NCBI GenBank assembly: GCA_024875585.1
Contig: GCA_024875585.1_4107.1
Length of the DNA: 64,000 nucleotides
Origin: a phage
Direction: 5' to 3' (one strand)
A model generated the notes under the pieces. It did not search any database. It had not been told where the DNA came from and saw only the letters and a program-made list of their open reading frames with translations. Below are positions 1,897 through 54,299 of this stretch, piece by piece. How positions within the stretch are numbered: the first letter of the stretch is position 1; every line of letters starts with the position of its first letter. The translations under genes were made by a program, and so were the position numbers.

Positions 1897-1897
1897 A

Positions 1898-2454: not shown

Positions 2455-2515
2455 AATTCACAGTATCCAATGGCGGTAGTTATATGTACTTTAGAGATGG
2501 AGTGGTTGAATTATT

Positions 2516-5006: not shown

Positions 5007-5011
5007 AACAA

Positions 5012-6061: not shown

Positions 6062-6068
6062 GGTCTTT

Positions 6069-6605: not shown

Positions 6606-6631
6606 CACCCACCGATTTTTTGTGATATAAT
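6602..6631 (+). promoter_or_regulatory. sigma70-type promoter TTGACA-N18-TGaTATAAT (extended -10)
   Basis: TTGACA 6602-6607, TG 6623-6624, TATAAT 6626-6631, in the intergenic gap before ORF 6665; followed by a 5'UTR hairpin ccctttata...taaaggg. Confidence 0.6.
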
Positions 6632-6664
6632 CCCTTTATATTAATTTTAAAGGGTTATAACACA

Positions 6665-7141
6665 ATGTCCAACGAACTCACATTCACCAATGCACAAAAA
6701 ATAGCAAAAGACATTATCAGGGTTTATAAATTCCTTGCGAATGTTACTGAAGATTTTTTAATTGATAAAAATAAAGTTATTAAGCGAAATGGATACCTTT
6801 CCTTTATGGATGGGTTGCTCTATAGTTCAGATGAGTCAGCTTGTAGTATTAGAGTACTTGATACTGTACCAAGTGGTGATTTTATTTCATACCATTTTCC
6901 AAGTTCAGATAAGTTCAAATACTACAATAGTATTCTCATAGCAGAAGACTTTGATACGATTGTAATTAACACTGAAGAAGAGTTCTTCCAGTACAGTACT
7001 GTGTACCCAGAGAGGATTGTTTTCAGTTCAGTGATTTACACTACCCTTAAAAATGAACTAAATTCCGATAGTGATCATTTCTACTTGGACCTGAATAATA
7101 TCGATTGTATTATTGAGTACATGGAGAAAAATGGTTTATGA
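6665..7141 (+). CDS. family-A protein (EEEFFQYSTVY)
   Basis: 158-aa ORF, motif. Confidence 0.65.
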   Translation: MSNELTFTNAQKIAKDIIRVYKFLANVTEDFLIDKNKVIKRNGYLSFMDGLLYSSDESACSIRVLDTVPSGDFISYHFPSSDKFKYYNSILIAEDFDTIVINTEEEFFQYSTVYPERIVFSSVIYTTLKNELNSDSDHFYLDLNNIDCIIEYMEKNGL

Positions 7142-7641
7142 TTACTACAGAATATGATTACAATAGTGTCCTTGAATTTGCAGAAAATATATATCGTATT
7201 GCAAAGGAGTTCAGAAGTCCTGAGCCGTTTGGTGGTATGTTCGAATACGATGAGTTTAGTTCATCAAAAGGAAGACTTGCATTTACTAATGGTAGAGGTA
7301 ATCAAATCTACACAGAGTACTTTGATGACAATGACTTTCATCACAAAGCCGAATACATTTCATATTGCCCTGGGTCTGATTTGAAGATTCATATTGAAAG
7401 AGATATAGAAAATGTATTTGTTCCATATACTGATTTAGTCTTCATGTCAGAGGAAATGTACTTTCAGGAATCATTGATTCATGATACAAAAGTACTTAAT
7501 ACTATATTATTATATGGTACACTACTTAATCATTACAAATACAATCAAAGATTCTTTTTAGATTTAGTAGTATACCATCAATGTGTGGATTATTTGAATG
7601 CAAAATCAGACAACAATTCAGTACATGACCGATGGTTCTGA
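7138..7641 (+). CDS. family-A protein (EEMYFQESLIHD)
   Basis: 167-aa ORF, ATGA overlap, motif. Confidence 0.65.
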   Translation: MITTEYDYNSVLEFAENIYRIAKEFRSPEPFGGMFEYDEFSSSKGRLAFTNGRGNQIYTEYFDDNDFHHKAEYISYCPGSDLKIHIERDIENVFVPYTDLVFMSEEMYFQESLIHDTKVLNTILLYGTLLNHYKYNQRFFLDLVVYHQCVDYLNAKSDNNSVHDRWF

Positions 7642-7960
7642 ATACTTTGTTTCAAGATATGTAATAAATCACAACCATTATGTAACCTATATTCCAGAGT
7701 ACAATCAATTTTATATCCAGATTTATCAACATAATGGAAAGAGAAATGATATATATTCAGAAATAAAAATCCCTGATTATAGTTCTTTATCAGAAGAGGA
7801 ATTGTTTCAGGAGAGCACTATCAGTACTGAAGATGTGTACGAAATAATGGAGTACCAGAAGGTACTTAAACATTTTCATGAAACAAATGATATACAAATA
7901 GATATTGTTAAACCGTGGTGTTACAATACATATGAGGTAAATTATGTTAGAAATGATTAA
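7625..7960 (+). CDS. family-A-like protein (EEELFQESTIS)
   Basis: ORF; start at ATG 7625 overlapping the previous stop. Confidence 0.55.
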   Translation: MTDGSEYFVSRYVINHNHYVTYIPEYNQFYIQIYQHNGKRNDIYSEIKIPDYSSLSEEELFQESTISTEDVYEIMEYQKVLKHFHETNDIQIDIVKPWCYNTYEVNYVRND

Positions 7961-8357
7961 AATTATGCAACGCTGTCTTATTGACAAATACGGGATATAT
8001 GGATATCGTTTAAGTGCTCCTATTGACAAAAATAAAACAACCTATGTAAGCTATAATGCTGTACAAGGGTTTGATATATTCATTAGTACTAATTATCAAA
8101 TCAAACAAGCTAAAGATGTGTCTATAATGACCCCTGATGAGTTATTTCAGTACAGCTTAGTTCTTCCTACATGTATCGATTTACAACGTCTAGGAGCGAT
8201 ACAGAAGGTTTTACGCGAACATAAAGTACAACCCAATAAAGTCACGCACATTCCAGAAACAATCTTCAAAACTATAGAAGTAGAAACCCCTGATTATATG
8301 TTAAGTGATGATGAATTCTACGAGAAGCACTTCCCTGGTAAAGTTTGGAGAGACTAA
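7944..8357 (+). CDS. family-A-like protein (DELFQYSLVL)
   Basis: 137-aa ORF. Confidence 0.55.
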   Translation: MLEMIKIMQRCLIDKYGIYGYRLSAPIDKNKTTYVSYNAVQGFDIFISTNYQIKQAKDVSIMTPDELFQYSLVLPTCIDLQRLGAIQKVLREHKVQPNKVTHIPETIFKTIEVETPDYMLSDDEFYEKHFPGKVWRD

Positions 8358-8839
8358 TGAACCGAAAGTACAGAGAAACTATGAAGTTCGCTAAGGAGTG
8401 TTTAGAGACATTTGATTTCATTTTCGATAACAAAGACTCACTTGGTCATTACTTCGTAATTACAAAAAAAGAAGATGAGAGATACAAGTGTCAAAGATTA
8501 GGATACAGTATTGAGTTATCCTTAATGAGTGATGGTATGATAAACTCCATATATGAATCTGGTAAGACAGATTACATTTCATTTAGATCATGGAGTGATA
8601 ATATAATGTTCTTGAGTCCTAATGGAAGTAAATATCCATTCATTAATGATTTATCAGAAGAAAGTTACTTTCAAAACAGTTTAATTTATACAGAAAAAGA
8701 ACTCAAAATGTTATTCATAATGTCGTACTTTAAAAAGTACTGTAAATTTAAATCATTATCTTTTGAGATTTCTGCGATGAAAGTATTCATTAAAAATGTA
8801 AAAGAATTAAAGAGGGCTTTTAATGTACATAGAAAATGA
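8357..8839 (+). CDS. family-A protein (EESYFQNSLIY..MSYFKK)
   Basis: ORF; ATG 8357; motif. Confidence 0.6.
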   Translation: MNRKYRETMKFAKECLETFDFIFDNKDSLGHYFVITKKEDERYKCQRLGYSIELSLMSDGMINSIYESGKTDYISFRSWSDNIMFLSPNGSKYPFINDLSEESYFQNSLIYTEKELKMLFIMSYFKKYCKFKSLSFEISAMKVFIKNVKELKRAFNVHRK

Positions 8840-9365
8840 GAATGTAAAATGCATCACTGACATTTGTATAAAATTAATGAAAATTTTCATTAACCCAAAA
8901 TACAAGACTCGTTCTTTACGTCATAATATTGATGAGCATTGTACCATTAATATCCTAGGTAGTATTCTTGATGTAAAATATGATGGTAAACTGTTATTCG
9001 GTATAAGAGAAGAGAAAATGGATGATGCATTCTTTTCTTGTAAAGATAAATTTGAACCTTCTGATTATAAAGTAATTATTCGTGATGATAGCATCTATAT
9101 TAGTAGTGATTATTCAAATTACTTCGATAAAATATACACTGAAAACGTTGATTACCATTATGAAATGCTAGATTTACCAGTAACAGACATTGATATGGAG
9201 AGAATCAAATTTTCATTATCAGATAATGAGTACTTAGGTATACAAACATATTATTCACTACAAGGAAAGATTCCACCTGCTATGTATATAAGGATTGAGA
9301 TTGGTAATGTATTCAATGATAAGGTTATATCAATTGCTGATAAAATATTGAGGGTTGAATTATGA
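8823..9365 (+). CDS. hypothetical protein
   Basis: 180-aa ORF; no family motif recognised. Confidence 0.5.
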   Translation: MYIENENVKCITDICIKLMKIFINPKYKTRSLRHNIDEHCTINILGSILDVKYDGKLLFGIREEKMDDAFFSCKDKFEPSDYKVIIRDDSIYISSDYSNYFDKIYTENVDYHYEMLDLPVTDIDMERIKFSLSDNEYLGIQTYYSLQGKIPPAMYIRIEIGNVFNDKVISIADKILRVEL

Positions 9366-22607: not shown

Positions 22608-23129
22608 ATGTCGAAGAAGGATACTTCGAATAAGCACTCAGTTCATTTCAGTACTGGAAAAGATAACTGGACAACCCCAAAAGATTTTTTTGAAGATTTA
22701 GATGAGTTATGGGGATTTACACTTGATGCTGCTTGTGTAGATGAGACTGCATTGTGTGATAATTTTTTCACTCCAGAAGATGATTCACTGTCACAGGATT
22801 GGGGAAATAATATAGTTTGGTTGAATCCACCATATAGTGACTTAAAAACATGGTTATCTAAAGCTGTAGATGCATATAATAACGGAGCAACTGTAGTTAT
22901 TCTTGTACCCTCAAGAACCGATACAATTGCTTTTCAGGATTATGCTGCTAAAATATGTGATTGTATTTGTTTTATTAAGGGAAGATTGCGATTTGGTATA
23001 CCAGAAGAACCCGATAAGAAAACTGATTCAGCACCATTTCCTTCGTGTCTGATAGTTCTGGATAAGTACTTAACCACTGCTAAAATCAATTGTCTTAAAT
23101 CTCTCGGATTGGTGATGAAGAATTTATGA
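22608..23129 (+). CDS. DNA N6-adenine methyltransferase (phage Dam family)
   Basis: N-terminal W-T-TP motif (DNWTTPKDFF) and catalytic NPPY (VWLNPPYSD); AAGGA RBS. Confidence 0.7.
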   Translation: MSKKDTSNKHSVHFSTGKDNWTTPKDFFEDLDELWGFTLDAACVDETALCDNFFTPEDDSLSQDWGNNIVWLNPPYSDLKTWLSKAVDAYNNGATVVILVPSRTDTIAFQDYAAKICDCICFIKGRLRFGIPEEPDKKTDSAPFPSCLIVLDKYLTTAKINCLKSLGLVMKNL

Positions 23130-23659
23130 AAGAAACATGTATATTATCATTTATGAGATGTAACCCAGTCCACAATGGACATGGTTTAGTTTTTGAAAAG
23201 GCCAAAACATTACAAGAACAGTACAATGCTGATTTAAAAATTTATCTAAGCACTAGTACTGACAATATAAAAAACCCACTACCACCTGAACTAAAAATGT
23301 ATTATACAGAGGGATTCTATCCTTCAGTGCAAGAGAACATCTACACAGAGGACAATCTATTTGATATAATGAGAGAACTGGATGGAAAGTACTTAGATGT
23401 TCTCTTCATATGTGGTTCTGACCGTATTGATTCTTTTCAGAAAACCCTTGACACTTACAATGGGAAGTTGTATAATTTTTGTAATATAAAAGTAATTCAA
23501 GCAGGTATTGACCGCCAATCAAGTCGATATAGCTCAACACAAATGCGTAAGTTTGCCAAAAATGAAGATTTTGATAGTTTTCGTGAGTTTTTGCCTGGAA
23601 ATGACGAGAACTTAAAAATTCAATTATTTGAAGATGTTATAAAATACATGAGGAAATAA
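23126..23659 (+). CDS. nucleotidyltransferase (NMN/NaMN adenylyltransferase-like, HxGH superfamily)
   Basis: F-x-x-x-NP-x-H-x-GH motif (SFMRCNPVHNGH) and SxTxxR motif (SSTQMR); ATGA overlap with the methyltransferase. Confidence 0.55.
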   Translation: MKETCILSFMRCNPVHNGHGLVFEKAKTLQEQYNADLKIYLSTSTDNIKNPLPPELKMYYTEGFYPSVQENIYTEDNLFDIMRELDGKYLDVLFICGSDRIDSFQKTLDTYNGKLYNFCNIKVIQAGIDRQSSRYSSTQMRKFAKNEDFDSFREFLPGNDENLKIQLFEDVIKYMRK

Positions 23660-34329: not shown

Positions 34330-34624
34330 ATATTATCATAATTTATTCGATTACATAAAACTAATAGATGATCTTTCTTTTGAATTTCTCAGTACTGAAA
34401 AAGTTGATGAACCTCTCTATTATGATTGTATTAGTTCACTGTGTTTAGATGAAAAAGAGATATTAGCAAATAACTTACCATCCACGGTCTGTGTAATCAA
34501 TGGTTCCAAGGCTGTGGTGTCTGAGGTTAATTTTCATAAATCACTTAATACAATTGTTTACAAGTTCGATAACACTTGGTTTAATCACGTAACTAGTAAT
34601 ATTAAATCTGTGAGATTTTTATGA
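34322..34624 (+). CDS. hypothetical small protein
   Basis: ORF; start ATG 34322. Confidence 0.5.
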   Translation: MNEYYHNLFDYIKLIDDLSFEFLSTEKVDEPLYYDCISSLCLDEKEILANNLPSTVCVINGSKAVVSEVNFHKSLNTIVYKFDNTWFNHVTSNIKSVRFL

Positions 34625-34917
34625 ATATAAAAAAATTATTTGAACAAGTAAATTTATTGTACTTGTGTTCAGACGGCTCAGATAAGGAATATAGTGAAGT
34701 TTATTTAGAACTATTTAGAACTGAAATACATCTAATTCGAAGATACCTAATTGATAACAAAACTGAAGTAAAAGTTAGATACCATAATGGTACTTTAAAG
34801 AATGGTATAATTATTGGATTGATAGTTACAAGAATGTCCAGTAATATTAAAGTTGCAGTAAGATTAATGACTGATGATGGTGTCTACACAATAGAAGCTA
34901 ATGAGATTATATATTAA
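34621..34917 (+). CDS. hypothetical small protein
   Basis: 98-aa ORF, ATGA overlap. Confidence 0.5.
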   Translation: MNIKKLFEQVNLLYLCSDGSDKEYSEVYLELFRTEIHLIRRYLIDNKTEVKVRYHNGTLKNGIIIGLIVTRMSSNIKVAVRLMTDDGVYTIEANEIIY

Positions 34918-35223
34918 ATGGATATACAAACATTCAATAAACTAAAGTACTATGATAATGGTTTTGTATTAATAATTAACGAACTTGATAGTATACCATA
35001 CGAATATCATAATCAAGTAATGAATATAGTAAAAAATATATGTGAAGAACTAAAAAGTATATTTAAAAATGAATATGTTTATGATTTAGGTAATAATAGA
35101 ACAAAACTATACATAAAGAAATTCTGGGGAACACATTGTGGTTTGATGGTCGATTTGGGTTTAAGTTTAGACAATAATTTCGAATCATGTTCATTATATT
35201 TGGACGAAATGAGAATCTCATGA
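34918..35223 (+). CDS. hypothetical small protein
   Basis: 101-aa ORF. Confidence 0.5.
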   Translation: MDIQTFNKLKYYDNGFVLIINELDSIPYEYHNQVMNIVKNICEELKSIFKNEYVYDLGNNRTKLYIKKFWGTHCGLMVDLGLSLDNNFESCSLYLDEMRIS

Positions 35224-42942: not shown

Positions 42943-42971
42943 TTGGACATTTTAAATCTTAGTGATATAAT
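42943..42971 (+). promoter_or_regulatory. sigma70-type promoter TTGGAC-N17-TATAAT with extended -10 TGATATAAT
   Basis: intergenic, upstream of clpP. Confidence 0.55.
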
Positions 42972-43005: not shown

Positions 43006-43701
43006 ATGGTTGAACAATTCAATTTTGGTGGTTATGCTAATGGTGAAGTAAGTAACATTTCTATTCCGTATGTAGTTGAAAAAGTTAATGGTTCAGAGCG
43101 TACATATGATCTAGCATCTCGTATGATGCAAGACCGTATCATTTTCCTTGATACTGATTTCAATGACCAGATGGCACATATCATCAAACAACAATTGGTG
43201 TGGTTAGACTCACAAGGTGATTCCCCTATTACATTCTATATTAGTTCACCAGGTGGTTCAGTACATGCAGGTTTGGGCATCGCTGATATTGCTAAATCTT
43301 GTGTATCACCAATCCGTACTGTAGTAATGGGTTATGCAGCATCAATGGGGTGTTATACACAATCTGTTATTGGGACTAAAGGTTTCCGTTTGGGTGGTAA
43401 ACGTTCCTACTTCATGTGTCACCAAGTAAGTTCTGGTACGAAAGGTCTAATTACTGACCAGAAAATTTCACTTAAACATTCTGATGAACTGAACACGTTG
43501 CTGACGAAAGAAATCGCTGAAGCTGTTGGCGTTTCTCATGAACAACTACTGAAAGATGCAGACCGTGATTTGTGGTTGAATGCTGAAGAAGCACTCGAAT
43601 ATGGTGAAAAAGGATTTATCGATGGTATTATCCTTGGACCACGCAACGAGAAAGGTCAATACCTAGTCAAGCGTCGTGGTGGTGTTGAAGAGTGGGTTTG
43701 A
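43006..43701 (+). CDS. clpP: ClpP-family serine protease
   Basis: strongly resembles the bacterial ClpP core as I recall it: SSPGGSV, GYAASMG (catalytic Ser), MCHQ (His), ADRD (Asp); GAGGA RBS. Confidence 0.85.
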   Translation: MVEQFNFGGYANGEVSNISIPYVVEKVNGSERTYDLASRMMQDRIIFLDTDFNDQMAHIIKQQLVWLDSQGDSPITFYISSPGGSVHAGLGIADIAKSCVSPIRTVVMGYAASMGCYTQSVIGTKGFRLGGKRSYFMCHQVSSGTKGLITDQKISLKHSDELNTLLTKEIAEAVGVSHEQLLKDADRDLWLNAEEALEYGEKGFIDGIILGPRNEKGQYLVKRRGGVEEWV

Positions 43702-43756
43702 TTTAGTGATGATTACACTTTATACCCACATTGTGTGGTATTTCTAAGGAGCAAAA

Positions 43757-44053
43757 ATGACAAAAACTTTAGTTCGTAATAATTCAGCACAAGAGGCTGA
43801 TGTTCTTGAAGATTCAGAATTCATCACTGTTGCACTGGAACAAATTAGTACTCAAGCATTGGCACTAAAAGATACTACACAGTCAGAAGACCTACTGGTT
43901 GGGATGGCTAATATCCTTGAACTAATGCAGGAAGTTCTAGTAAAGAACAATATTACACCAATTGATGCAGTACAATATGCTGCAAATCTACGAGCAGAAT
44001 TCGGTTCATTCTGTGATAAGAAATATATCAGTACTGAAGAGGAAAAAGAATAA
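43757..44053 (+). CDS. hypothetical acidic protein
   Basis: 98-aa ORF. Confidence 0.55.
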   Translation: MTKTLVRNNSAQEADVLEDSEFITVALEQISTQALALKDTTQSEDLLVGMANILELMQEVLVKNNITPIDAVQYAANLRAEFGSFCDKKYISTEEEKE

Positions 44054-44054
44054 T

Positions 44055-44501
44055 ATGTCTAATGCACAATACAAAGAAGGTTCTGCCGCGTTTAAAAACA
44101 AAGTAGTTTTTAACAATGAACAGCTAAAATCACAGCACCCACTATTCCGTCAAGGTTATCGTGCTGCACAAGCTGAAGCAATGAAGAAAAGTAATGTGAC
44201 ATTCCCAACTACATTATATGATATTCCTAAACGTCCACATATTTTTAAAGCAGAATGGACTGATATTATGGCAGCGACAAAGCGACCTCGTTTTGCTAAA
44301 CTTCATACTGATCAAGGACGTTGGCTACTAATTGGTATTATGAAAGCAGTAGAAAATCAATCACATAAGATTTCCCGATATAAAGATGTTATTGCTATGG
44401 TCGATAAAGCATTTGATCTTGTTCTGCAATATGGTTATGACGAAGGTGTTCTAACTGTTGCTGATTGTGAGCAATATCAGTACACTCCATATCAAAAATG
44501 A
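44055..44501 (+). CDS. hypothetical protein
   Basis: ORF; ATG 44055 after GAGGA. Confidence 0.55.
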   Translation: MSNAQYKEGSAAFKNKVVFNNEQLKSQHPLFRQGYRAAQAEAMKKSNVTFPTTLYDIPKRPHIFKAEWTDIMAATKRPRFAKLHTDQGRWLLIGIMKAVENQSHKISRYKDVIAMVDKAFDLVLQYGYDEGVLTVADCEQYQYTPYQK

Positions 44502-44504
44502 TAT

Positions 44505-44543
44505 AAAAAATAGGAATCCCACACAAGGATTCCTATTTTTATT
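44505..44543. terminator. rho-independent terminator (A-run / hairpin / T-run)
   Basis: hairpin taggaatcc-cacacaa-ggattccta flanked by AAAAAA and TTTTT. Confidence 0.8.
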
Positions 44544-44592
44544 ATTGCACGTCAAATTGGATTCATTGATGTTTATAATCTAGAGGGACATA

Positions 44593-45117
44593 ATGAAATA
44601 TACACACCTAAGTATAGATGATACTAATATCTGGTTAGATAACATAATCAAGACATTAGAATTAATTAAGCTTACATTACAGAAATCAATTGATATTGAA
44701 ACTAATATTAAACACGAAATATTAAATTATTATCACAAAAACAAATATTGTAAGTTTTTCTCTAAATTAATTTATGGATTATATGATAGTGAAGATATTT
44801 GTATCGGTTACAGTACTGGTATTTGCTTTACAATTAATGGTCTTATGAATGATTTAAATTTCCGTCTTTCAGAAGAACAGCGAAATTTTCGTCTATTTTG
44901 TAAGGATATTATGGATGAAGATGAAATATCATTTGTTGTTGAATTGAATAGAACATGGTCTACATATGCAGATAAACCATTTGAAATCAATGAAACCGAT
45001 GTGTTAAACTATTTTCGAGTTATGAAAATTCATGATTTGTGTAAAAACGCATTGTTAAGTATTGGAGCTTATAATGAAACATACGACTTGGTTGAAGATA
45101 GCAGAAGTAGTTGCTGA
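44593..45117 (+). CDS. hypothetical protein
   Basis: 174-aa ORF. Confidence 0.55.
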   Translation: MKYTHLSIDDTNIWLDNIIKTLELIKLTLQKSIDIETNIKHEILNYYHKNKYCKFFSKLIYGLYDSEDICIGYSTGICFTINGLMNDLNFRLSEEQRNFRLFCKDIMDEDEISFVVELNRTWSTYADKPFEINETDVLNYFRVMKIHDLCKNALLSIGAYNETYDLVEDSRSSC

Positions 45118-45553
45118 AGAAAGTAAATGTATTTCACAAAAAGTTGGTTGTGTTATTGTTAAAAATAATCGAGTATTGAGTACTGGATATAACGGTACAC
45201 CATCAAAGCAACCTAACTGTTGTGATGTTAATAAACATCTCGTAAACAATGGTCAATTTCAAAATTGGATTGATGACGATGCTAAACACTTACATCACGA
45301 GTGGAGTAATATTCATGAGATCCATGCAGAAATGAATGCATTACTATATAGTTCACCACAAGAACGTCAAGGTGCAACACTTTACACCACACTCCAACCG
45401 TGCTATACTTGTTCTAAGTTAATTGCCGGTAGTGGTATTTCTCGTGTAATTTACGAAAAATCGTATCGTCGTACTCCACCAGAAGCTATTAAAGTACTGG
45501 AAGATGCTGGAATTATTGTTAATTGCATTTATGATAAGGGTCTTGATAAATGA
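45074..45553 (+). CDS. cd: dCMP deaminase
   Basis: zinc-binding HAEMNAL and PCYTCSKL motifs of the dCMP deaminase family; GGAG RBS. Confidence 0.85.
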   Translation: MKHTTWLKIAEVVAEESKCISQKVGCVIVKNNRVLSTGYNGTPSKQPNCCDVNKHLVNNGQFQNWIDDDAKHLHHEWSNIHEIHAEMNALLYSSPQERQGATLYTTLQPCYTCSKLIAGSGISRVIYEKSYRRTPPEAIKVLEDAGIIVNCIYDKGLDK

Positions 45554-45807
45554 CAGTAATAATTATTATTGCTTTTCTAATAACAGTGTTTTTTATTTTT
45601 ATGTTATATATAGTTGCTATGGATGAACCTAATAGTTCTTTTAGAAATTATGAAGTTCGTTTTTCTGCACAAAATAATAAGTACTATATTGTAAACTGTG
45701 TACATTGTAGTGAGAAAAAGGTAACTGGTAGGTTTGGGTTTACAATTTATTATAAAGATCGAGTAGAAGCTGATATGGTTTGTCAAAAACTTAACACAGT
45801 AGAATAA
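45550..45807 (+). CDS. small protein with N-terminal TM helix
   Basis: 85-aa ORF, ATGA overlap with cd. Confidence 0.5.
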   Translation: MTVIIIIAFLITVFFIFMLYIVAMDEPNSSFRNYEVRFSAQNNKYYIVNCVHCSEKKVTGRFGFTIYYKDRVEADMVCQKLNTVE

Positions 45808-45836
45808 AAAAAGGAGCCGCATGGCTCCTTTTTTAT
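45805..45836. terminator. bidirectional rho-independent terminator
   Basis: AAAAAAA - hairpin aggagcc-gcat-ggctcct - TTTTTT; sits between convergent plus and minus transcription units. Confidence 0.8.
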
Positions 45837-46073
45837 GTTTTTACGTAAGATGTATAGATCATTATGTAATTTGATTTTGTTAATCATATACATAGTACAA
45901 AAACCTTCAACATCTGCTTTTTCATCTTTCAATTTAATGAAGAAAGTATCATCTCTTAGACTTTCATCTGAATTTTCGATACTATCAATAGAAAAAGGAA
46001 GTCTTCCGGTTAATGTAATTATTCTTCTCTAAGGAAAGTGCATGATAATTATCATGCACTATATTATTAAAAA

Positions 46074-48746
46074 TTACGCACTGATTGTTACAGTTGCAGT
46101 ATCTTTTTTATTACCATCCACAGTAGTCACTGTAATGATTACAGAACCTTCTTCTAGAGCAGTTACTAATCCATCATCACTAATAGATACTTTAGTAGGT
46201 TCATCTGCACTATAAGTTACTGATTTGTTAGTTGCTTTAGCTGGAAGAACTTCAGGAACTAGTTGAACTGTTTTAGTTCCTGATAGTGAAAGTTCAGTAG
46301 TTTTAGGTGTTAAACTAACACTGGATACTGGAACTGGAATATTAACGATTACTGATGTTTGACCAGTAACATCACTACCATCAGCGGCAGTAGCGATAAT
46401 ATTTGCAGTACCATTAGTTAGTGCAGTTACGATACCAGTATTAGCATCTACTTTAGCAATTTCTGGAGCACTGGATGACCAAATTACTTTTTTATTGGTT
46501 GCATTACTTGGGGTAATTGCAGCAGTCATCTGTTTAGTTGCATTCAATGTAGTCAAAGTTTGATCTTTAGGAGTTACATCAATTGCAGTTACTGGCACTG
46601 GAATATTAACAGTAATAACACCTTGACCTGTTTTACCACTTCCATCAGCAGCAGTTGCGATAATGTTTGCAGAACCGTTAGTTAACGCAGTTACAACACC
46701 AGTACTAGCATCTACTTTCGCTACAGCAGGTTTACTGGAAGACCATGTTACAGATTTATTTGTTGCGTTAGTTGGAAGAACTTCAGCAGCCATTGCTTGA
46801 GTTGCGTTAACAGCAGTCAATGTTTTAGTTGCTGGAGTAACATTAATAGATGCGACTGGAACTGGAATTGCTACAGTTACCGCACATTTTGCAGTTTTTG
46901 CTCCATCAGCAGTTGTTACTGTGATATCAGCAGTGCCATTTGCTACAGCAGTGATTAAACCAGTTGGACTAACAGTTGCCACTCCATCAGCAGAAGTACT
47001 ATAAGTTACTGCTTTGTTGGTAGCATTAGGTGGTAGTACAGTTGGTGTTAGTTGTTGAGTATCACCGACTGAAGTTAATTTAGCACTTGTTGGAGATACT
47101 GATACACTTGCAACAGGAACTGGAATATTAACATTTACCACGCAAACTTTAGTAAATCCACCATCAGATGTGGTTGCTGTAATATTTGCAGTACCGTTTG
47201 CAACAGCAGTGATTAAACCAGTTGGACTTACCGTTGCGACACCCTCAGCAGAAGTAGTGTATGAAATATCTTTACGACGAGCGTTATCTGGAATAACAGA
47301 TGCAGTTAGTTGTTGAGTAGCACCTACAGAAGTTAGGGTTGCTGTCAACGGAGTCATATTAATACCAGTTACTGGGATCGTTACATCAATCACTGATTCA
47401 GCAGTTTTAGCACCATCATCAGTGGTAACAGTAATAGTTGTAGTACCGTTATCAACCGAAGTTACTAGACCAGTATTGCTAACTTTTGCCACGTCTGGAT
47501 ATGAAGAAACATATGAAACTGCTTTATTGGATGCAGTTGTAGGAGCAACGGTTGTTTCTAATTGTTTAGTATCACCTAATGTTGAGAATGTATAAGTACT
47601 AGGAGTCATAGTGACACCAGATACAGGTGTTTTCACAGTGATAGTAGTAGTATCAGTTTTAGCACCATCTTCGGTTGTTGCTGTAATCACCACTGTACCG
47701 TTAGCAACACCAGTTACTAGACCAGAAGTAGGGTTAACAGTTGCTATATCAGGTGTTGCTGAAGACCACGTGACGTTTTTATTAGTTGCATCATCAGGAG
47801 ATATTGTAGCAGTTAATTGTTGAGTACCGCCAACGTTAATTGTTGCAGTTTTAGGAGAAACAACAACACCACTAACTGGAGTTGTTACAGTAACAGTACA
47901 TTTTGAAACAAATATGCCATCAACAGTAGTTGCAATTACATCAGTACTACCATCTGCAACACCAGTTACCATACCAGATGGACTTACAGTTGCGACGCGT
48001 GGTATACTAGATAACCAATTAACACGTTTATCACTTGCATCATCGGGTGATACGGTAGCTGTTAGTTGTTGAGTTTTACCAACACTAAGAGATAGAGTTG
48101 AAGGAGAAACAACAACACCACTAACTGGAGTTGTTACGGTAAATGCACAAACATCAGTGAAACCACCATCATGAGTAGTAACTGTTACATTTGCGTTACC
48201 ATTAGCACGGGCAATTGCTAAACCAGTTTGAGCATCAACTTCAACAATTGTTGGAGCAGAGGAACTATAACTTACTGTTTTATCATTTGCATAATCTGGA
48301 TCAATTGTAGCTGATAGCTGTTGTGTACTACCAACTTTAAGTGCTACTACTTTAGGTGAAATAATTACACCATCAACTGGAGTAGTATAATCACGTTTAA
48401 CCACACGACCATTGTTCAATTTAATAATACGACCCATATAAAGAGTAGTATATCCTTTACTAATCCCATCATCTACATAAATCATGAATGAATTGTCTTG
48501 AACCATATTAATTGCGTCTACTGGTTTAACGGAATTTGGAATGTCGATACCACGGGTATCATACCAACACATGGAAACTTTGTAATAGATATCACCATTA
48601 TCATTTATGAGATCATAAACGTTACTGGAACGTTGACGGTTAATATATAAAGTTTCGGTTAACACCTTACCATCGATTTTAGCGACAGAAACTTTAATAC
48701 CACCAATACCAAATGGCAATTTACCTTCACTAGATATTGCTTTCAT
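46074..48746 (-). CDS. Ig-like (Big_2) repeat virion surface protein, Hoc-like or adhesin-like
   Basis: 890 aa; unique N-terminal ~120 aa followed by about nine ~85-aa repeats (VSGVVVSP...TQQLTAT..PDDA..K.V.WSS...ATV...GLVTGVANGT); only long minus-strand gene; AAGGA RBS. Confidence 0.7.
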   Translation of the reverse strand: MKAISSEGKLPFGIGGIKVSVAKIDGKVLTETLYINRQRSSNVYDLINDNGDIYYKVSMCWYDTRGIDIPNSVKPVDAINMVQDNSFMIYVDDGISKGYTTLYMGRIIKLNNGRVVKRDYTTPVDGVIISPKVVALKVGSTQQLSATIDPDYANDKTVSYSSSAPTIVEVDAQTGLAIARANGNANVTVTTHDGGFTDVCAFTVTTPVSGVVVSPSTLSLSVGKTQQLTATVSPDDASDKRVNWLSSIPRVATVSPSGMVTGVADGSTDVIATTVDGIFVSKCTVTVTTPVSGVVVSPKTATINVGGTQQLTATISPDDATNKNVTWSSATPDIATVNPTSGLVTGVANGTVVITATTEDGAKTDTTTITVKTPVSGVTMTPSTYTFSTLGDTKQLETTVAPTTASNKAVSYVSSYPDVAKVSNTGLVTSVDNGTTTITVTTDDGAKTAESVIDVTIPVTGINMTPLTATLTSVGATQQLTASVIPDNARRKDISYTTSAEGVATVSPTGLITAVANGTANITATTSDGGFTKVCVVNVNIPVPVASVSVSPTSAKLTSVGDTQQLTPTVLPPNATNKAVTYSTSADGVATVSPTGLITAVANGTADITVTTADGAKTAKCAVTVAIPVPVASINVTPATKTLTAVNATQAMAAEVLPTNATNKSVTWSSSKPAVAKVDASTGVVTALTNGSANIIATAADGSGKTGQGVITVNIPVPVTAIDVTPKDQTLTTLNATKQMTAAITPSNATNKKVIWSSSAPEIAKVDANTGIVTALTNGTANIIATAADGSDVTGQTSVIVNIPVPVSSVSLTPKTTELSLSGTKTVQLVPEVLPAKATNKSVTYSADEPTKVSISDDGLVTALEEGSVIITVTTVDGNKKDTATVTISA
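46150..48400 (-). repeat. tandem ~250-270-bp coding repeats (Ig-like domain units)
   Basis: recurring DNA blocks such as actggaactggaat...gcagtaccatt within the Big_2 gene. Confidence 0.6.
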
Positions 48747-48782
48747 ATACTTTCCTTTATAAATTGTATTGTATTGTTATAT

Positions 48783-48790
48783 TATTTATA
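48783..48790 (-). promoter_or_regulatory. T4-type late promoter TATAAATA
   Basis: exact TATAAATA on the minus strand about 40 nt upstream of the Big_2 start codon. Confidence 0.55.
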
Positions 48791-49058
48791 TTATAACAAA
48801 ATTATTTTAGTATTAAAAAGGAGTTCTAATGTTCCTTTATATTTTAAAGGAACATACTGTGTAAATCTGGTTTGGTCAGGTAAATCTTTCGGAGAGAAGG
48901 AAGTAGTGAATGACATTTTATCATTAAAATCATCTCCTTACCTTTAAAATAGAATTGTAAACTGCCTCCTAATATGATACCATAGTTCAAATGGTAAATC
49001 AATGAACTTAACAAAAAAAACACTTGATACTACAGTCATAATTGTTCAGTTTTTGTGC

Positions 49059-49087
49059 TTGACATAATTAATCAATTATTGTACTAT
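49059..49087 (+). promoter_or_regulatory. sigma70-type promoter TTGACA-N17-TACTAT
   Basis: in the divergent intergenic region upstream of ORF 49123. Confidence 0.5.
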
Positions 49088-49122
49088 TAATAATGTTCCT
49101 TAACTCAAATCCGAGGTAATTA

Positions 49123-49728
49123 ATGAAACGATTATTGAAAGAGATTATACAAACCGTTGTTATAATTGCTGCATTAAACTTTCCAGCGGCGGCAGAAGTT
49201 TCAAAAAAAGCATCTGTTTTTCTATTAAATGATCATGTTGGGTCAATTGATGGTGAACTAAATGATAAAACTGTACAAGATGTGGAGCAGTTGTGGAAAG
49301 AAAAAAAATTTAAAATTTTAACAATTACATCACCTGGGGGTGATTTTGATGCTGGTATTAAAATGGGAAATTTTGTTAGAGACAATGGTATAAATTTAAT
49401 TGTTTCTAGATATTGCAATTCAGCATGTACTGTGGTATTCTTTAGTGTGTCCCCTGAAAAACGATATATGACAAATCAATCAGTACTGGGATTACATAAC
49501 ATTTCAATCAAAAGTAACGTTAGAGATAGGGATAATACTTTTGTATCTGTTAGACAATTATCAACATTTACTGAAGAAATGGCAACAAAAGTAGGATTTT
49601 TATTTACACTATATTCAGCTAATGGAATTCCACCTAGCGTTCTATATAGAGTTAGTCGTGCACGTGGTGAAGATGTTGTTATCTTAACAAAAAAAGACCT
49701 AATTCATTACGGTTCGGTAAATCCATAA
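49123..49728 (+). CDS. secreted ClpP/crotonase-fold protein (putative periplasmic protease)
   Basis: N-terminal signal-peptide-like segment (VVIIAALNFPAAAEV); TSPGGDFDAG resembles the ClpP/SppA GG motif. Confidence 0.4.
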   Translation: MKRLLKEIIQTVVIIAALNFPAAAEVSKKASVFLLNDHVGSIDGELNDKTVQDVEQLWKEKKFKILTITSPGGDFDAGIKMGNFVRDNGINLIVSRYCNSACTVVFFSVSPEKRYMTNQSVLGLHNISIKSNVRDRDNTFVSVRQLSTFTEEMATKVGFLFTLYSANGIPPSVLYRVSRARGEDVVILTKKDLIHYGSVNP

Positions 49729-49796
49729 AAATAATTATAATAACAGGATGATTATGTTGTTCTTCCTTTGTTATTAACTATATCGGAAATATAACT

Positions 49797-50057
49797 ATGA
49801 CAAACATCCAGAATTTGACGTCTATTATTTTTTATGCTACAGTGGTGATGTATGCTATTGTACTTATTTTAACAGTTTTTATTTACAAAGATTACAAAAA
49901 AGGCTTTATTAATAGTACAACAATGAAGTTCAATTCTAAATTTGAAGCAATTATATTTTATGTTTTGACAACATCATATTTGTTGTGTATAATGTTACTA
50001 GGGTCATTGATTTATATTTTATATACAACATTATTTGCAATTGGAGCTATTTTATGA
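49797..50057 (+). CDS. small membrane protein (3 predicted TM)
   Basis: 86-aa hydrophobic ORF. Confidence 0.45.
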   Translation: MTNIQNLTSIIFYATVVMYAIVLILTVFIYKDYKKGFINSTTMKFNSKFEAIIFYVLTTSYLLCIMLLGSLIYILYTTLFAIGAIL

Positions 50058-50650
50058 CATGTATTATTGCACACACTGATGGTGTAACTTCATTTATTGC
50101 AGGGGACAAGATGGGGAGTGATGGTTTTACGAAATCAATCCAAACAGAGCCTAAAGTGTTTGAGAAAGAATTTGTAAAGATTAGTGGTGATGACGGCTTG
50201 ACTCGTACAAAAGATGTTATGACAATTGGATTCACTACATCATTTCGTATGGGTCAACTGCTAACTTATAATTTAAATTTACCAGACCAAAATTCAAATG
50301 AGACGTTTCTACAGTATTTAGTACTGAAAGTTATTCCTCTTATTCGTCAAATGTTTAAAGACGAATGGGGTGCACGTGATACAACCCAAGATGTTGGTGG
50401 TGGTCAATTTATTATTTTACACAATCATACGATTTATGAAATTCAGGAAGATTTTTCGGTTCTCCAGTCAAAATCAAGAGTTGCATCTGTTGGTAGTGGT
50501 ACATATCATGCAATTGCAGCTATGCAAGCATATATTGATCTTGAGAAAGAAACTAACGTACAACTACATGAACGTATCAAATCCATTTTCAAAATTGTTA
50601 GTGATAATGTATCGAGTGTAAGCGAAGAGTTTGATGTATTAAAATATTAA
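50054..50650 (+). CDS. HslV/proteasome-beta-like N-terminal nucleophile hydrolase
   Basis: begins M-T-CIIAHTDGVTSFIAGD (Thr at position 2; cf. HslV TTIVSV..IAGD); later GSGTYHAIAAMQA resembles HslV GSGGPYAQAAA. Confidence 0.5.
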   Translation: MTCIIAHTDGVTSFIAGDKMGSDGFTKSIQTEPKVFEKEFVKISGDDGLTRTKDVMTIGFTTSFRMGQLLTYNLNLPDQNSNETFLQYLVLKVIPLIRQMFKDEWGARDTTQDVGGGQFIILHNHTIYEIQEDFSVLQSKSRVASVGSGTYHAIAAMQAYIDLEKETNVQLHERIKSIFKIVSDNVSSVSEEFDVLKY

Positions 50651-50665
50651 AATTATAAGAGAGAA

Positions 50666-50860
50666 ATGATGGCATACACAATTTATGAATGGATTTTGAG
50701 TTTTATTATAGTATTTTTTATGGTTGTAATTTACAATAATGCTAAATGCTTATATAGAGATTTAAAATCCAATGGTTATCATGCAAACAATAATTTAATG
50801 TATGCCTATCATATTGGAATCATTCTATTATTATCAATATATTTAATTGGTTTTATTTAA
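50666..50860 (+). CDS. small membrane protein (2 TM)
   Basis: 64-aa hydrophobic ORF. Confidence 0.45.
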   Translation: MMAYTIYEWILSFIIVFFMVVIYNNAKCLYRDLKSNGYHANNNLMYAYHIGIILLLSIYLIGFI

Positions 50861-50869
50861 GGATTGCGT

Positions 50870-51622
50870 ATGATATCAGAAAAATTTATAAGTAATGAGG
50901 GAAACAAGAGATTACTTATTATCTCAGGAGCAGGTCTTTCCGTTGAAAGTGGGATGGAGCCATTTCGATTTGATGATGGCTTATGGGATACATTTAAAAT
51001 TAATGACGTATGTAATATTGCAAATTTAGATACAAAATATCATGTTGTTCATTCGTTTTATAACACACTGCGTGTTAAACTGGGTCAATGTGAACCAAAT
51101 GCAATGCATTATTTTATAAAATCCTTAGAGGACCAATATGGTGATTGTTTTCTTCATATGACCTCCAATATGGATGATCTTTATACACGTATTGGTGGCA
51201 AAGAACTAAAACTTCATGGTAATTTATGTGAAGTGATAGAAAATTATAGTATTAATGGTGATGATTATAACATTGTTAACTGTGGTTATGAGCCATATAT
51301 ACCAAAACATGATGTTTTTGCTAAACCAAATGTAGTGATGATTGGTGAATATCACCGTTATGTTGATGGTGTTCGTTTGCCAATATATGAAGAAAGAAAT
51401 AATGTTTTAAAAACACTTAATGAAAACGATACTGTGATTGTTATTGGAAGTAGTGATACAGTACTTGTGTGGTCCAGATTAGCTGCGGCATTACCCTGTT
51501 ATAGCGTTAATGTTAACATTCGTAAAAATGATAATGATTTTCTGTTCAATGAAAAAATTATTCAACCAGCTACCAAAGCAATACCACAATTAGAGACTAT
51601 AATTAAGGAACGTATGAAATGA
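50870..51622 (+). CDS. Sir2-family NAD-dependent deacylase/ADP-ribosyltransferase-like protein
   Basis: sirtuin motifs GAGLSVESGMEPFR, TSNMDDL, LHG, VMIGE, VIGSS; AAGGA RBS. Confidence 0.7.
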   Translation: MISEKFISNEGNKRLLIISGAGLSVESGMEPFRFDDGLWDTFKINDVCNIANLDTKYHVVHSFYNTLRVKLGQCEPNAMHYFIKSLEDQYGDCFLHMTSNMDDLYTRIGGKELKLHGNLCEVIENYSINGDDYNIVNCGYEPYIPKHDVFAKPNVVMIGEYHRYVDGVRLPIYEERNNVLKTLNENDTVIVIGSSDTVLVWSRLAAALPCYSVNVNIRKNDNDFLFNEKIIQPATKAIPQLETIIKERMK

Positions 51623-52170
51623 GTGTTAAAGAAGTTCCCTTTGGTGAATATGGTTCACGTGCCAATTTTGTATTTTGCTATTTCTTTGCAAGAAAATGTA
51701 ACCCTTACGAAAATTACGAATTGAATGATATACCAGAAGTAAATTTAGTATTACTTCAATTACGTTGGGATGGCCTTCTAGGGGGATGTGGTGGGACAGT
51801 TGAAAGTACTGATATCTCACTAGAAGATGCGTTACGTCGTGAAATTCAAGAAGAGATGGATTACAATATTTTTGTTTCCCATCTTCGACCACTTAAAACT
51901 TTTGAAATTTACCCAGGTGCAAACAGTCATAGTTTTAGCTATGAAGTAACCTATGATGAGTTGAAACACATTAGAGATGGATACACTAATGCTAAACATG
52001 CGAGTGCTGAAGTGGCTGGTGTAAATTTATGTCATATTTCTCGTTATTCTAAGGGACAAAATCGAGAAGCGGGATATAATAATCTTATGACTCAGAACTT
52101 CATTGGTACAGCAAAACAAGAATTGGAGTATCTGGTTCAAAAAGAAAACTTACTAATTAGTTATCTATAG
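51619..52170 (+). CDS. Nudix hydrolase
   Basis: Nudix-box-like GG..E...LRREIQEEMD (spacing not fully canonical); ATGA overlap with the Sir2 gene. Confidence 0.55.
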   Translation: MSVKEVPFGEYGSRANFVFCYFFARKCNPYENYELNDIPEVNLVLLQLRWDGLLGGCGGTVESTDISLEDALRREIQEEMDYNIFVSHLRPLKTFEIYPGANSHSFSYEVTYDELKHIRDGYTNAKHASAEVAGVNLCHISRYSKGQNREAGYNNLMTQNFIGTAKQELEYLVQKENLLISYL

Positions 52171-52859: not shown

Positions 52860-54299
52860 ATGAAAAAATATACAATTGACACAAACGTACTACTATCTGA
52901 TCCAAATGCGTCTGTTGCTTTTGATGGTGCTGCAATCATTCTACCATTTACAGTACTGGAAGAATTGGATTCGATTAAGAGTCGCAATGTTGATGTTTCA
53001 CGTGATGCTCGTGTTGCGATTCGTAACATTGAAGCAATTATTGCAGAGGCATCACATAATGAGATTAGTTGTACTGGTGTTAATATTGCTGATGTTCATA
53101 CCAATATGAATCCTGATAGCAAATTGTTTGTTATTACAACCGAAGAAGCTGAGGCACTAATTCGTACTAAAGGTTCAGACGAGAAAGTTCAAACCCTTCT
53201 TAAAAGTACTGTACCTGATGATAAAATTATTCTGGTAGCTTTAGCAACCGAATCAGTACTGGTAACTCGTGATATCAACATGCGTATCAAAGCACTAAGT
53301 TATGGTGTCGAGGTACAAGACTATCGTCATGATATTGTTATTGGTGATAGTGATTTGATGCACATTGGTCAACATCATTTGGAACTCAATTTTTGGGATG
53401 TATATAGCAATTTAGCAAATACAAATATTAAAACTGAACAAATTGGTCGTCGATTGTATCATTACATTCCTAAAAGCTTGATTGGTCATTTACTTCCACA
53501 AAATCTATGCATTGGTGATTATCTATATGATGATGCTGATGTATTATTTGTATATGAAGGCCAATCAGCCATTGAGGAAGATGATGGCACACTAACACCA
53601 GAAGATATTTTGGTATTCCAAGACATTGGTCAATCTGTAGCTTTGCGTGCTAAAGTATGGGATATTAAAGCAAAGAATATTCAACAAGCACTTGCAATCA
53701 ACAGTATTCTCGATCCTGATGTACACCTAACAGTGCTGCTAGGTTCTGCTGGAACTGGCAAAACATTAATTACGATTGCTACTGCACTAGAGTTAGTACT
53801 GGAAAAACGCAAATACGACCGTATTATCTTCTCTAAAACACAAGATTCACAGTTTGAAGATATAGGATTCTTGCCAGGTTCTGAGACAGAGAAAGTTATC
53901 CCATTCTGTGGACCTGCAATTGATGCTCTTGAGTATCTTCATAAAGATGATGTATCACCACAAGGTAGCATCGAAGAGATTCTCAAACGTAACGTGATGC
54001 AATTTAAAGCATTGAACTTTATTCGTGGTCGTTCTTTTGCCAATACAATTCTAATTGTGGATGAAGCACAGAACTTAACACCAGCCCAGTTAAAAACTGT
54101 CTTGACAAGAGCCGGAGAAAACTGTAAAGTAATCATACTTGGTAACCTAGCACAGATTGATAACAAGTTTATCAGTCCAGTAAACAGTGGTTTGACATAT
54201 GTAACTGAAAAATTCAAGGATTGGAGTGGTTGTCGTATCATTGAATTAGAAGGTGTTGTTCGTTCACCACTTGCTGAATTTGCTGAAGAAAATATGTAA
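52860..54299 (+). CDS. phoH: PhoH-like ATPase with N-terminal PIN domain
   Basis: PIN-like N-terminus (YTIDTNVLLSDP...LEELD); Walker A GSAGTGKT and Walker B IVDEAQN. Confidence 0.85.
   Translation: MKKYTIDTNVLLSDPNASVAFDGAAIILPFTVLEELDSIKSRNVDVSRDARVAIRNIEAIIAEASHNEISCTGVNIADVHTNMNPDSKLFVITTEEAEALIRTKGSDEKVQTLLKSTVPDDKIILVALATESVLVTRDINMRIKALSYGVEVQDYRHDIVIGDSDLMHIGQHHLELNFWDVYSNLANTNIKTEQIGRRLYHYIPKSLIGHLLPQNLCIGDYLYDDADVLFVYEGQSAIEEDDGTLTPEDILVFQDIGQSVALRAKVWDIKAKNIQQALAINSILDPDVHLTVLLGSAGTGKTLITIATALELVLEKRKYDRIIFSKTQDSQFEDIGFLPGSETEKVIPFCGPAIDALEYLHKDDVSPQGSIEEILKRNVMQFKALNFIRGRSFANTILIVDEAQNLTPAQLKTVLTRAGENCKVIILGNLAQIDNKFISPVNSGLTYVTEKFKDWSGCRIIELEGVVRSPLAEFAEENM

Follow-up and report, generated by a model that had tools for sequence, protein, structure and literature searches.

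Three peptidase-family genes in an Asteriusvirus jumbo phage: a divergent ClpP with probable phage-encoded ClpA and ClpS partners, a predicted exported ClpP-fold protein and a proteasome-beta-type hydrolase

The question raised by the locus examined here, positions 43,006 to 50,650 of a stretch of phage DNA of 64,000 nucleotides (nt; GCA_024875585.1, contig GCA_024875585.1_4107.1; "the window" hereafter means this whole stretch), is what a virus would do with three open reading frames (ORFs) that each resemble a peptidase: ORF1, a ClpP homologue, ORF2, a protein with a leader peptide and a ClpP-like motif, and ORF3, an HslV-like protein. All three are present where a preliminary description had placed them and with the features ascribed to them, and the catalytic residues proposed at that time, whose loss would have spoken against the idea, hold on alignment in each. 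All three are also under purifying selection. The answer that we favor, and regard as rather probable, is that they are independent, non-structural genes of peptidase families, which would encode the peptidase of a phage ClpAPS-type system, an exported hydrolase of the ClpP fold, and an N-terminal nucleophile (Ntn) hydrolase acting through Thr1, respectively.

Judged by its DNA, the window comes from an Asteriusvirus, a jumbo coliphage of the 121Q/PBECO4 type; the members of this genus are "Rak2-like" jumbo myophages of roughly 350 kb. The closest match of the 7.6 kb stretch that holds the three genes is Escherichia phage UE-S1 (95% DNA identity across 96% of the length), while 121Q, PBECO4, phAPEC6, slurp01 and other Asteriusvirus are 84–86% identical over about half of it. 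The proteins themselves were already in public databases at 98–100% identity, the notes of the 121Q record call the orthologues of ORF1, ORF2 and ORF3 "protease (ClpP-like)" (gene 464), "protease (ClpP-like)" (gene 473) and "protease (ClpYQ-like)" (gene 475), and the PHROGs database holds a family for each (phrog_94, phrog_26024 "protease" and phrog_1040 "peptidase HslV family"); at the level of annotation, therefore, this was public before, with related points discussed in comparative papers, and by itself the observation matters little. Among these papers, Iyer et al. (2021; PMC7824862) described ClpP as the most prominent of the patchily distributed peptidases of jumbo phages, probably directed at the host. 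Our literature searches found no experimental work on the three genes, phrase searches for phage ClpP or HslV were empty, the UE-S1 paper leaves the genes unmentioned, and a PADLOC scan assigned none of the three to a defence system. The combination of a ClpP with a proteasome-like hydrolase had been called uncommon in a phage, and this holds in so far as cellular-type ClpP is found in 162, and HslV-like proteins in 198, of 50,697 GenBank phage records, but not in so far as ClpP-related head proteases are very common and both genes had been annotated before. What retains value is the correction of a mistaken label, a tractable phage ClpAPS system, and the flagging of two uncharacterised enzyme families.

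ORF1 (43006..43701, + strand; 231 amino acids, aa) had been described as a ClpP homologue with a Ser/His/Asp triad, and this is confirmed. It scores 141.4 bits against Pfam CLP_protease (PF00574; gathering threshold 20.2), covering profile positions 2–179 of 182, it matches solved ClpPs in the PDB down to E = 3.6e-36, and it is 36% identical to the E. coli and 40% to the B. subtilis enzyme from end to end. The triad S113/H139/D188 stands in register with S97/H122/D171 of E. coli and recurs in the orthologues of RaK2, CBB and PAC2; the SPGG oxyanion loop and the N-terminal axial segment IPYVVE...GER are also retained, and it is through this end-to-end homology, triad, loop and segment that ORF1 resembles bacterial ClpP, the peptidase of ClpAP/ClpXP (MEROPS S14). 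The gene is under strong purifying selection, with a ratio of nonsynonymous to synonymous substitution rates (dN/dS) of 0.042 versus 121Q, and its records are distributed by host as Escherichia 34, Klebsiella 10, Salmonella 8 and Erwinia 8.

The differences from bacterial ClpP are nevertheless of some weight. The NCBIfam equivalog cut-offs for the cellular enzyme are missed, at about half of the required score (151 versus 308.6 bits for TIGR00493, 154.8 versus 249 bits for PRK00277), and because of this ORF1 has to be placed in a divergent branch and not among the equivalogs of cellular ClpP. An N-terminal extension of ~19 aa and a clade-specific C-terminal tail of ~25 aa are added, the latter (NEKGxYxVKRRGGVEEWV) being conserved in ORF1 and in the RaK2 and CBB orthologues and lying near the apical surface. 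At the ten positions through which E. coli ClpP contacts IGF/IGL loops, the residues of ORF1 are in part kept or conservatively replaced (F49W, Y62, I90V, M92, L189I) and in part changed (Y60T, F82S, L114G). It would be speculation to see in these pocket changes and in the tail a co-adaptation with the phage's own ClpA, which is introduced below.

A different role is assigned to ORF1 by the databases. It has the same fold, catalytic type and database name as the ClpP-related head-maturation proteases of phages (NF045542, phrog_94), tailed phages often have a prohead protease of the ClpP fold, its match to phrog_94 ("head maturation protease") has an E of 1.3e-43, and RefSeq gives that label to its orthologues in 121Q, PBECO4, RaK2 and CBB, all of which would make it the prohead protease. 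We hold this to be very improbable, because the lineage has a protease of the T4 gp21 type in its capsid module: gp227c of phAPEC6 matches Pfam Peptidase_S77 (T4 gp21) at 74.5 bits and adjoins a Gp23-type capsid gene, and the identical protein is encoded by 121Q gene 601, between the portal gene 598 and the scaffold and capsid genes 602 and 603. ORF1, on the other hand, lies outside the head module, next to genes for a DNA ligase, a metallophosphoesterase and a dCMP deaminase and after a sigma70-type promoter match, and it reaches only 51.6 bits with the head-maturation model NF045542, whose cut-off is 120, as against ~150 with the ClpP models, so that it scores far better as a cellular ClpP. 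Furthermore, in the virion proteome of phAPEC6, which counts 62 proteins, gp227c was detected, as were gp347 (the Ig protein) and gp341c (PhoH), whereas gp353c, gp346c and gp345c, the orthologues of ORF1, ORF2 and ORF3, were not (PMC7247149). It tells somewhat against our reading that this proteome is that of a relative (~85% DNA identity) and that absence from the mature virion is compatible with a transient role in the prohead.

Given the separate S77 protease and the absence from virions, the label has most likely been carried over from phages in which the prohead protease does have the ClpP fold; its presence on the ORF1 orthologues in RefSeq and PHROG is very probably a mis-transfer, and a probable systematic mis-annotation stemming from PHROG 94, and curators could correct it on this ClpP. 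In NC_025447, NC_027364, NC_019526 and NC_041878, "head maturation protease" is the name given to the orthologue of ORF1, although the head module of the same genomes has another gene annotated as a capsid maturation protease, which is T4 gp21-like. The suggestion of the preliminary description that the three proteins may serve morphogenesis is not supported, for the same reasons, namely the separate S77 protease between portal and scaffold/capsid genes, the lack of all three orthologues in virions in which that protease and neighbours of the three genes were found (PMC7247149), and the conserved sigma70-type matches before ORF1 and ORF2, the only motif of T4-late type being that before the Ig-repeat gene. 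The companion suggestion, that they may remodel host proteostasis, is plausible as far as sequence comparison can tell.

If ORF1 is not a structural protease, with what would it work? The annotation of 121Q was read through as a whole. The product of gene 581 (gp581, 762 aa, "ClpA-like", 298257–300545) matches E. coli ClpA (1ksf) at E = 2.4e-180 over residues 17–741, has the Pfam architecture AAA + AAA_lid_9 + AAA_2 + ClpB_D2-small with Walker A and B motifs in both AAA+ modules, and reads RSIGMSGSD at the place of the ClpP-docking loop of ClpA, KSIGLIHQD (IGM at 626–628); the docking tripeptide [IL]G[MVF] appears as SIGM, SIGV, SLGM and SIGF in 121Q, RaK2, CBB and PAC2 (PA5oct-like), respectively. 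Gene 48 (181 aa, "protease adapter protein ClpS", 34461–35006) is above the Pfam ClpS threshold, and its product keeps the Asp-Asp pair that aligns to D35/D36 of E. coli ClpS; it adjoins a KTSC/DnaJ-like gene. UE-S1 carries both, the ClpA-like protein at 95.8% identity (283704–285986) and the ClpS-like at 97% (22695–23237). In the phage collection, the ClpA-like protein is found in Escherichia (33 records), Klebsiella (11), Salmonella (8), Erwinia (8) and Yersinia (4) phages, and the ClpS-like in 72 records, distributed as 34, 10, 8, 8 and 4 over the same hosts, so that ORF1, ClpA and ClpS have near-identical distributions across the clade. No homologue of ClpX or HslU was found in the whole 121Q genome or in the window, and a tblastn search with ClpX found homologues solely in other jumbo lineages. 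Attai et al. (2018; PMC6102473) had already reported ClpA as conserved among Rak2-like phages.

Since the lineage encodes ClpA and ClpS with a matching distribution, ORF1 most likely serves as the peptidase in a ClpA/ClpS/ClpP system that the phage itself encodes, as far as can be judged from these correspondences. ORF1 would form the proteolytic chamber, the phage ClpA would dock on it, the phage ClpS would deliver a subset of the substrates, and this private ClpAPS-type machine would degrade host or phage proteins during infection, in place of maturing heads. Several facts count against such a pairing: the genes for ClpA and ClpS are not within the 64 kb of the window, and were examined in 121Q and located in UE-S1; the co-occurrence is confined to one clade and is not phylogenetically independent; the changed pocket positions weaken the case for an ATPase docking on ORF1; and the equivalog scores, as seen above, fall short of those of cellular ClpP. 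Unlike the clp genes of cells, the three Clp genes of the phage are scattered across its genome and are not housekeeping genes.

The main competitor of this reading is that ORF1 would pair above all with the ClpX and ClpA of the host, or form mixed rings with host ClpP, and so redirect the unfoldases of the host, to which we give a minor but real share of the probability. The host provides both ClpX and ClpA, the phage is without ClpX, and the axial segment and the pocket residues Y62, I90, M92 and L189 are conserved; against this, ORF1 is found across the clade together with a complete phage ClpA, docking tripeptide included, and with a ClpS; positions Y60, F82 and L114 differ; and a conserved tail of 25 aa is added near the apical surface. 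The two readings are not mutually exclusive, although the earlier idea of a pairing with host ClpX/ClpA overlooks the phage's own ClpA and ClpS, and should yield to, or include, them. Other jumbo-phage ClpPs (PA5oct-like, Lak, SCTP-2, Atu_ph07) are likewise of cellular type, patchy and accompanied by Clp ATPases or adaptors, and a host-directed role has been proposed for them (PMC7824862, PMC6102473); their carriers, however, often have ClpX, while the Rak2-like clade has ClpA and ClpS and no ClpX, and where Iyer et al. (PMC7824862) see ClpS taking the place of ClpP in other phages, both are present here. ORF1 is thus best read alongside the phage ClpA and ClpS, and the Rak2-like coliphages offer a tractable system in which to ask why a virus should carry an entire AAA+ protease of its own.

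ORF2 (49123..49728, +; 201 aa), for which a signal peptide and a ClpP-like motif had been proposed, has both: a predicted leader, textbook by rule-based features, and an invariant SxGG, together with S100 and H125, which align to the Ser and His of the ClpP active site. The leader comprises residues 1–24 (49123..49194, +), beginning with MKRLLKE (net +2), followed by a hydrophobic core of 13 residues and by FPAAA/EV, a textbook site for signal peptidase I with predicted cleavage A-A-A/E; F20, P21, A22 and A24 are invariant among close relatives. By these features, ORF2 would be exported by Sec and cleaved after A24. The close relatives are limited to 49 records of Rak2/Asterius-like phages, and a profile search of 1.84 billion representatives returned 2,317 distant relatives, mostly of 230–300 aa; a third search for homologues added 3 further usable sequences. 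Within the family, CLP_protease is matched by 10 of 24 members (best 2.4e-7), and the best PDB match of the profile is ClpP. Among 149 non-redundant relatives, 122 have an N-terminal hydrophobic segment, and the motif residues are kept almost without exception: S70 in 146, G72 in 145, G73 in 146, C98 in 144, S100 in 144, C102 in 146 and H125 in 137. The mature protein has exactly two cysteines, which are the invariant pair flanking the Ser (C98-x-S100-x-C102). The relatives that bear a name are called "hypothetical protein" (chromosomal, Ferrimonas balearica) or "ClpP class serine protease".

On these comparisons, ORF2 belongs to a large, uncharacterised family of predicted exported proteins of the ClpP fold (PHROG 26024). 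It could be a periplasmic Ser-His hydrolase, probably a peptidase, in which a C98–C102 disulfide may staple the nucleophile elbow. With a dN/dS versus 121Q of 0.279, it is the fastest-evolving of the three genes, which would fit a role in the envelope or facing the host. Several observations weaken this picture: the leader could alternatively be an uncleaved anchor; the single-sequence Pfam score with CLP_protease (17.5 bits, gathering threshold 20.2) and the profile match to ClpP (E = 0.017) are both sub-threshold; no acidic residue of a triad is conserved across the 149 relatives; and the AlphaFold2 model has a predicted local distance difference test (pLDDT) of 63, falling below 50 over residues 100–146, too weak for active-site geometry. 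With this same model of pLDDT 63, the top 50 Foldseek matches are all ClpP, at a template-modeling score of ~0.36; a single-sequence search of the PDB gave nothing meaningful.

It is from these weaknesses that the opposite interpretation draws, in which ORF2 would be inactive, either as a scaffolding or NfeD-like membrane protein with an uncleaved anchor or as a catalytically inert binding protein of the ClpP fold. The missing third residue of the triad, the poor model, the small membrane proteins that adjoin the gene, and the weak NfeD1b_N matches of ORF2 itself and of 5 of 24 family members are all compatible with it. We nevertheless regard it as unlikely, since the near-absolute conservation of the Ser, the His, the SxGG and both Cys in the 149 relatives argues for catalysis; the A-x-A with its preceding Pro is invariant in close relatives, and no stomatin-like partner was noticed among the ORFs of the window or the 121Q annotations, in which no search aimed at it was made. 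With NfeD and with SppA of the S49 family, ORF2 has in common a predicted extracytoplasmic location, a loop of the ClpP SxGG type and a nucleophile Ser at the equivalent position. NfeD and SppA, however, use Ser-Lys dyads, whereas in the family of ORF2 the partner of the Ser is a His at the position of the His of ClpP; there is no conserved Lys, no Peptidase_S49 match, and a score of 17.2 bits where NfeD1b_N requires 40. The invariant C-x-S-x-C is unique in this comparison, and ORF2 has no OB domain.

ORF3 (50054..50650, +; 198 aa) starts at the ATG at 50054 (MTCIIAH), which overlaps the stop of the preceding gene (ATGA) as in the annotation of its relatives. The proposal that it is HslV-like, with a Thr-1 nucleophile, is upheld: profile matches are to HslV (3.6e-8), the 20S beta subunit (4e-5) and BPH (1e-4), and T2, the Thr1 of the mature protein, falls on Thr1 of HslV, with D18, K34 and G147-S-G149 corresponding to the remainder of the proteasome-type set Thr1/Asp17/Lys33/GSG. 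In 36 diverse relatives, M1, D18, K34, G59, S63, F64, Q68, G117, G147 and G149 show no variation, while T2, C3 and I4 hardly vary, and dN/dS versus 121Q is 0.099. The AlphaFold2 model is confident (pLDDT 93.5) and has the proteasome-beta Ntn fold. A single-sequence search of the PDB gave nothing meaningful and ORF3 itself has no Pfam match, Proteasome (PF00227) being reached by 4 of the 36 relatives. The family is large, with 323 clusters, at least 583 stretches in IMG/VR and the 198 GenBank records given above, and its carriers include T5-like Epseptimavirus, Vibrio and Aeromonas phages, Geobacillus E3, XacN1 and SCTP-2.

The likeness to HslV does not amount to membership of that family. Compared with HslV (ClpQ), ORF3 has 13–19% identity, stays far below the equivalog cut-offs (17 versus 157.75 bits for TIGR03692, 16.9 versus 137 bits for PRK05456) and has no co-encoded HslU, while its family has C3 and TSFRMGQLL, to which the jumbo-phage members add a hairpin insertion of ~17 aa; compared with BPH and Anbu, sequence similarity is marginal (profile E ~1e-4) and the family is overwhelmingly borne by phages. 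ORF3 is, in consequence of these differences, a distinct, phage-borne branch of proteasome-beta proteins, for which "HslV-like" is a fair term for the fold and not for the family. It would be a cytoplasmic Thr1 Ntn hydrolase whose nucleophile is exposed by removal of the methionine, as in HslV. As the phage has neither an HslU nor a ClpX of its own, ORF3 would be either a stand-alone ring protease, like BPH, or one that borrows the HslU of the host. In the second case it would be a true substitute for HslV, docking on host HslU to give a hybrid HslUV protease of altered specificity, which is rather unlikely in our estimation; among the neighbours in 91 loci of the family, there was no HslU/ClpX or other recurrent ATPase. 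Less likely still is that it is no chambered protease at all, but a Thr1 Ntn enzyme of some other kind, for instance a transpeptidase/ligase like Connectase, or an amidohydrolase with a specific substrate: the N-terminal domain of Connectase is weakly matched by 4 of 36 family members (best 7e-4), the invariant motifs C3 and TSFRMGQ are absent from HslV, and the genomic contexts are diverse, often of nucleotide metabolism and sometimes beside a portal gene.

The contexts of the ORF3 family bear on its non-structural character. In large phages, its members are usually found among genes for nucleotide metabolism and replication. In small phages, at 13 of 91 loci, the gene follows a portal-MuF gene, in the head module, which speaks against a non-structural role. 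At one of these (IMGVR_UViG_3300031227_000727, 1378–9119) and 12 similar loci, the HslV-like gene stands between a portal-MuF fusion and a head-maturation protease of HK97 type; the idea that the homologues act as the prohead proteases of small phages was rejected, as the former locus also has the HK97-type protease (phrog_80). Unbiased clustering of the neighbours at the 91 loci gave no conserved partner (portal-MuF 13, NAD-ligase 10, HD 9, ThyA 8), and a small membrane protein upstream of the homologues was discarded as a candidate association, being found at 4 of 68 loci, which is no more than the background rate of 5.6%. Both ORF2, with its exported proteins of C-x-S-x-C and ClpP fold, and ORF3, with its proteasome-beta homologues of phages, point to sizeable uncharacterised families, and the predictions of catalytic residues are clear and cheap to test.

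Could the three genes form one functional module of proteolysis? They lie within 7.6 kb; ORF2, orf86 (a gene for a small membrane protein) and ORF3 are tightly spaced and probably co-transcribed; and in one phage contig from a metagenome, an ORF3 homologue is immediately preceded by a gene for a ClpP-fold-like protein. Of 80 viral loci with an ORF3 homologue, however, only two have an ORF2-like or ClpP-like gene within 5 kb, one of them being 121Q itself; ORF2 is limited to its 49 Rak2/Asterius-like records against the 198, from many lineages, of the ORF3 family; and the predicted compartments differ, the periplasm for ORF2 and the cytoplasm for ORF3, with hydrophobic segments lacking in ORF1 and ORF3. 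As the ORF2 and ORF3 families do not co-occur outside the clade and the compartments are not the same, the three genes are neighbours and not a module, the contrary being the least probable of all the alternatives considered here. The metagenomic contig in question (Logan SRR10605998_79, 5258–5977), which is T4-like, encodes a protein of 239 aa with xxGG, C-S-S-A and His motifs like those of ClpP and a weak NfeD1b_N match, directly 5′ of the HslV-like gene and 3′ of PhoH, in an arrangement that superficially mirrors ORF2–ORF3; a conserved two-gene module, suggested by this contig, was rejected: the protein matches the ORF2 profile at an hhalign probability of only 7% and is not recognisable as one of that family, and just two of the 80 IMG/VR loci have an ORF2-like or ClpP-like neighbour.

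A bolder possibility is that the three would form a private and partly orthogonal network: a ClpA–ClpS–ClpP route of N-degron-like type insulated from the host, an ATPase-independent ring of ORF3, and a disulfide-stapled ORF2 in the periplasm. In it, the Y60T/F82S/L114G pocket, the C-terminal tail and the [I/L]G[M/V] loop would insulate the phage enzymes from the host Clp machinery and allow them to degrade host proteins of the phage's choosing. We consider this doubtful; if it were true, ORF2 would represent a large cellular family that nobody has characterised.

As to expression, strong sigma70-type matches (at least 11/12) number 11 on the + strand of the window (6602, 15395, 17122, 23448, 24171, 33111, 41231, 41835, 42944, 49965 and 56428) and 1 on the − strand, against 2.1 in shuffled sequences, and this excess suggests that host RNA polymerase transcribes the entire region as an early block; ORF1, ORF2 and ORF3 are probably expressed by this polymerase. 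The match 5′ of ORF1 (TGGACA-16-TATAAT, 11/12, extended TG; 42944..42971, +) is identical in 121Q, its function being predicted from the consensus, and that 5′ of ORF2 (TTGACA-17-TACTAT, 10/12; 49059..49087, +) has a counterpart at the same position in 121Q (TTGACT...TATTAT). A perfect 12/12 match, TTGACA-17-TATAAT, is found at 49965–49993 (+), inside orf86 and 60 nt 5′ of ORF3; at this site 121Q has mismatches in both hexamers (TCTGGCA..., TCTAATG versus TTTGACA..., TATAATG), and the internal promoter may be lineage-specific or a chance match. That all these promoters are consensus matches, and that the perfect one of ORF3 is not kept in 121Q, detracts from the argument; because of this lack of conservation, ORF3 is probably read through from ORF2. 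The sole TATAAATA of the 64 kb lies 44 nt 5′ of the minus-strand Ig-repeat structural gene; this motif is the late-promoter consensus established for T4 and assumed for this clade. The Rak2-like/Asteriusvirus clade encodes a gp55-like sigma factor.

The transcription unit of ORF1 would continue into an ORF of 98 aa (43757..44053, +; dN/dS 0.17), probably co-transcribed with it, there being no terminator-like site between the two above a stem of 5–6 bp, and an ORF of 148 aa (44055..44501, +; dN/dS 0.09), the final gene before a 15 bp hairpin between runs of A and T (44506..44540). This hairpin, bidirectional and terminator-like, is the probable end of the unit, and the annotation of UE-S1 likewise has a terminator at the corresponding position. 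Around ORF3, the preceding orf86 (49797..50057, +; 86 aa, conserved as 121Q gene 474) encodes a membrane protein with 2–3 transmembrane segments, and orf64 (50666..50860, +; 64 aa) another with 2, between ORF3 and Sir2 in the same tightly spaced string of genes.

Directly 3′ of ORF3 and orf64 follow a Sir2-like and a Nudix gene (50864–52170 and 52860–54299, +), translationally coupled and highly constrained (dN/dS ~0.03), a pair that may be linked to NAD metabolism or counter-defence, although PADLOC was negative here too. After these comes a PhoH-like protein of 479 aa, whose phAPEC6 orthologue, gp341c, is virion-associated. There are no tRNAs within the 64 kb.

The only minus-strand gene in the 7.6 kb stretch (46074–48746, −) encodes the protein of 890 aa with nine Big_2 immunoglobulin (Ig)-like repeats referred to above. 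Its length is variable, with a coding sequence of 1902 nt (633 aa) in UE-S1 and a product of 125 aa for 121Q gene 471, which matches gp347, the 14 kDa virion protein of phAPEC6, and it contains an internal tandem duplication of 264 bp (46373–46868); it looks like a rapidly expanding and contracting decoration gene of the capsid or tail. Farther away, six paralogous ORFs of ~150–165 aa, four of them head to tail, are found at 74–1896, 7138–7641 and 8357–8839 (+), and correspond to a run of hypothetical genes of similar size in 121Q, from gene 370 onward.

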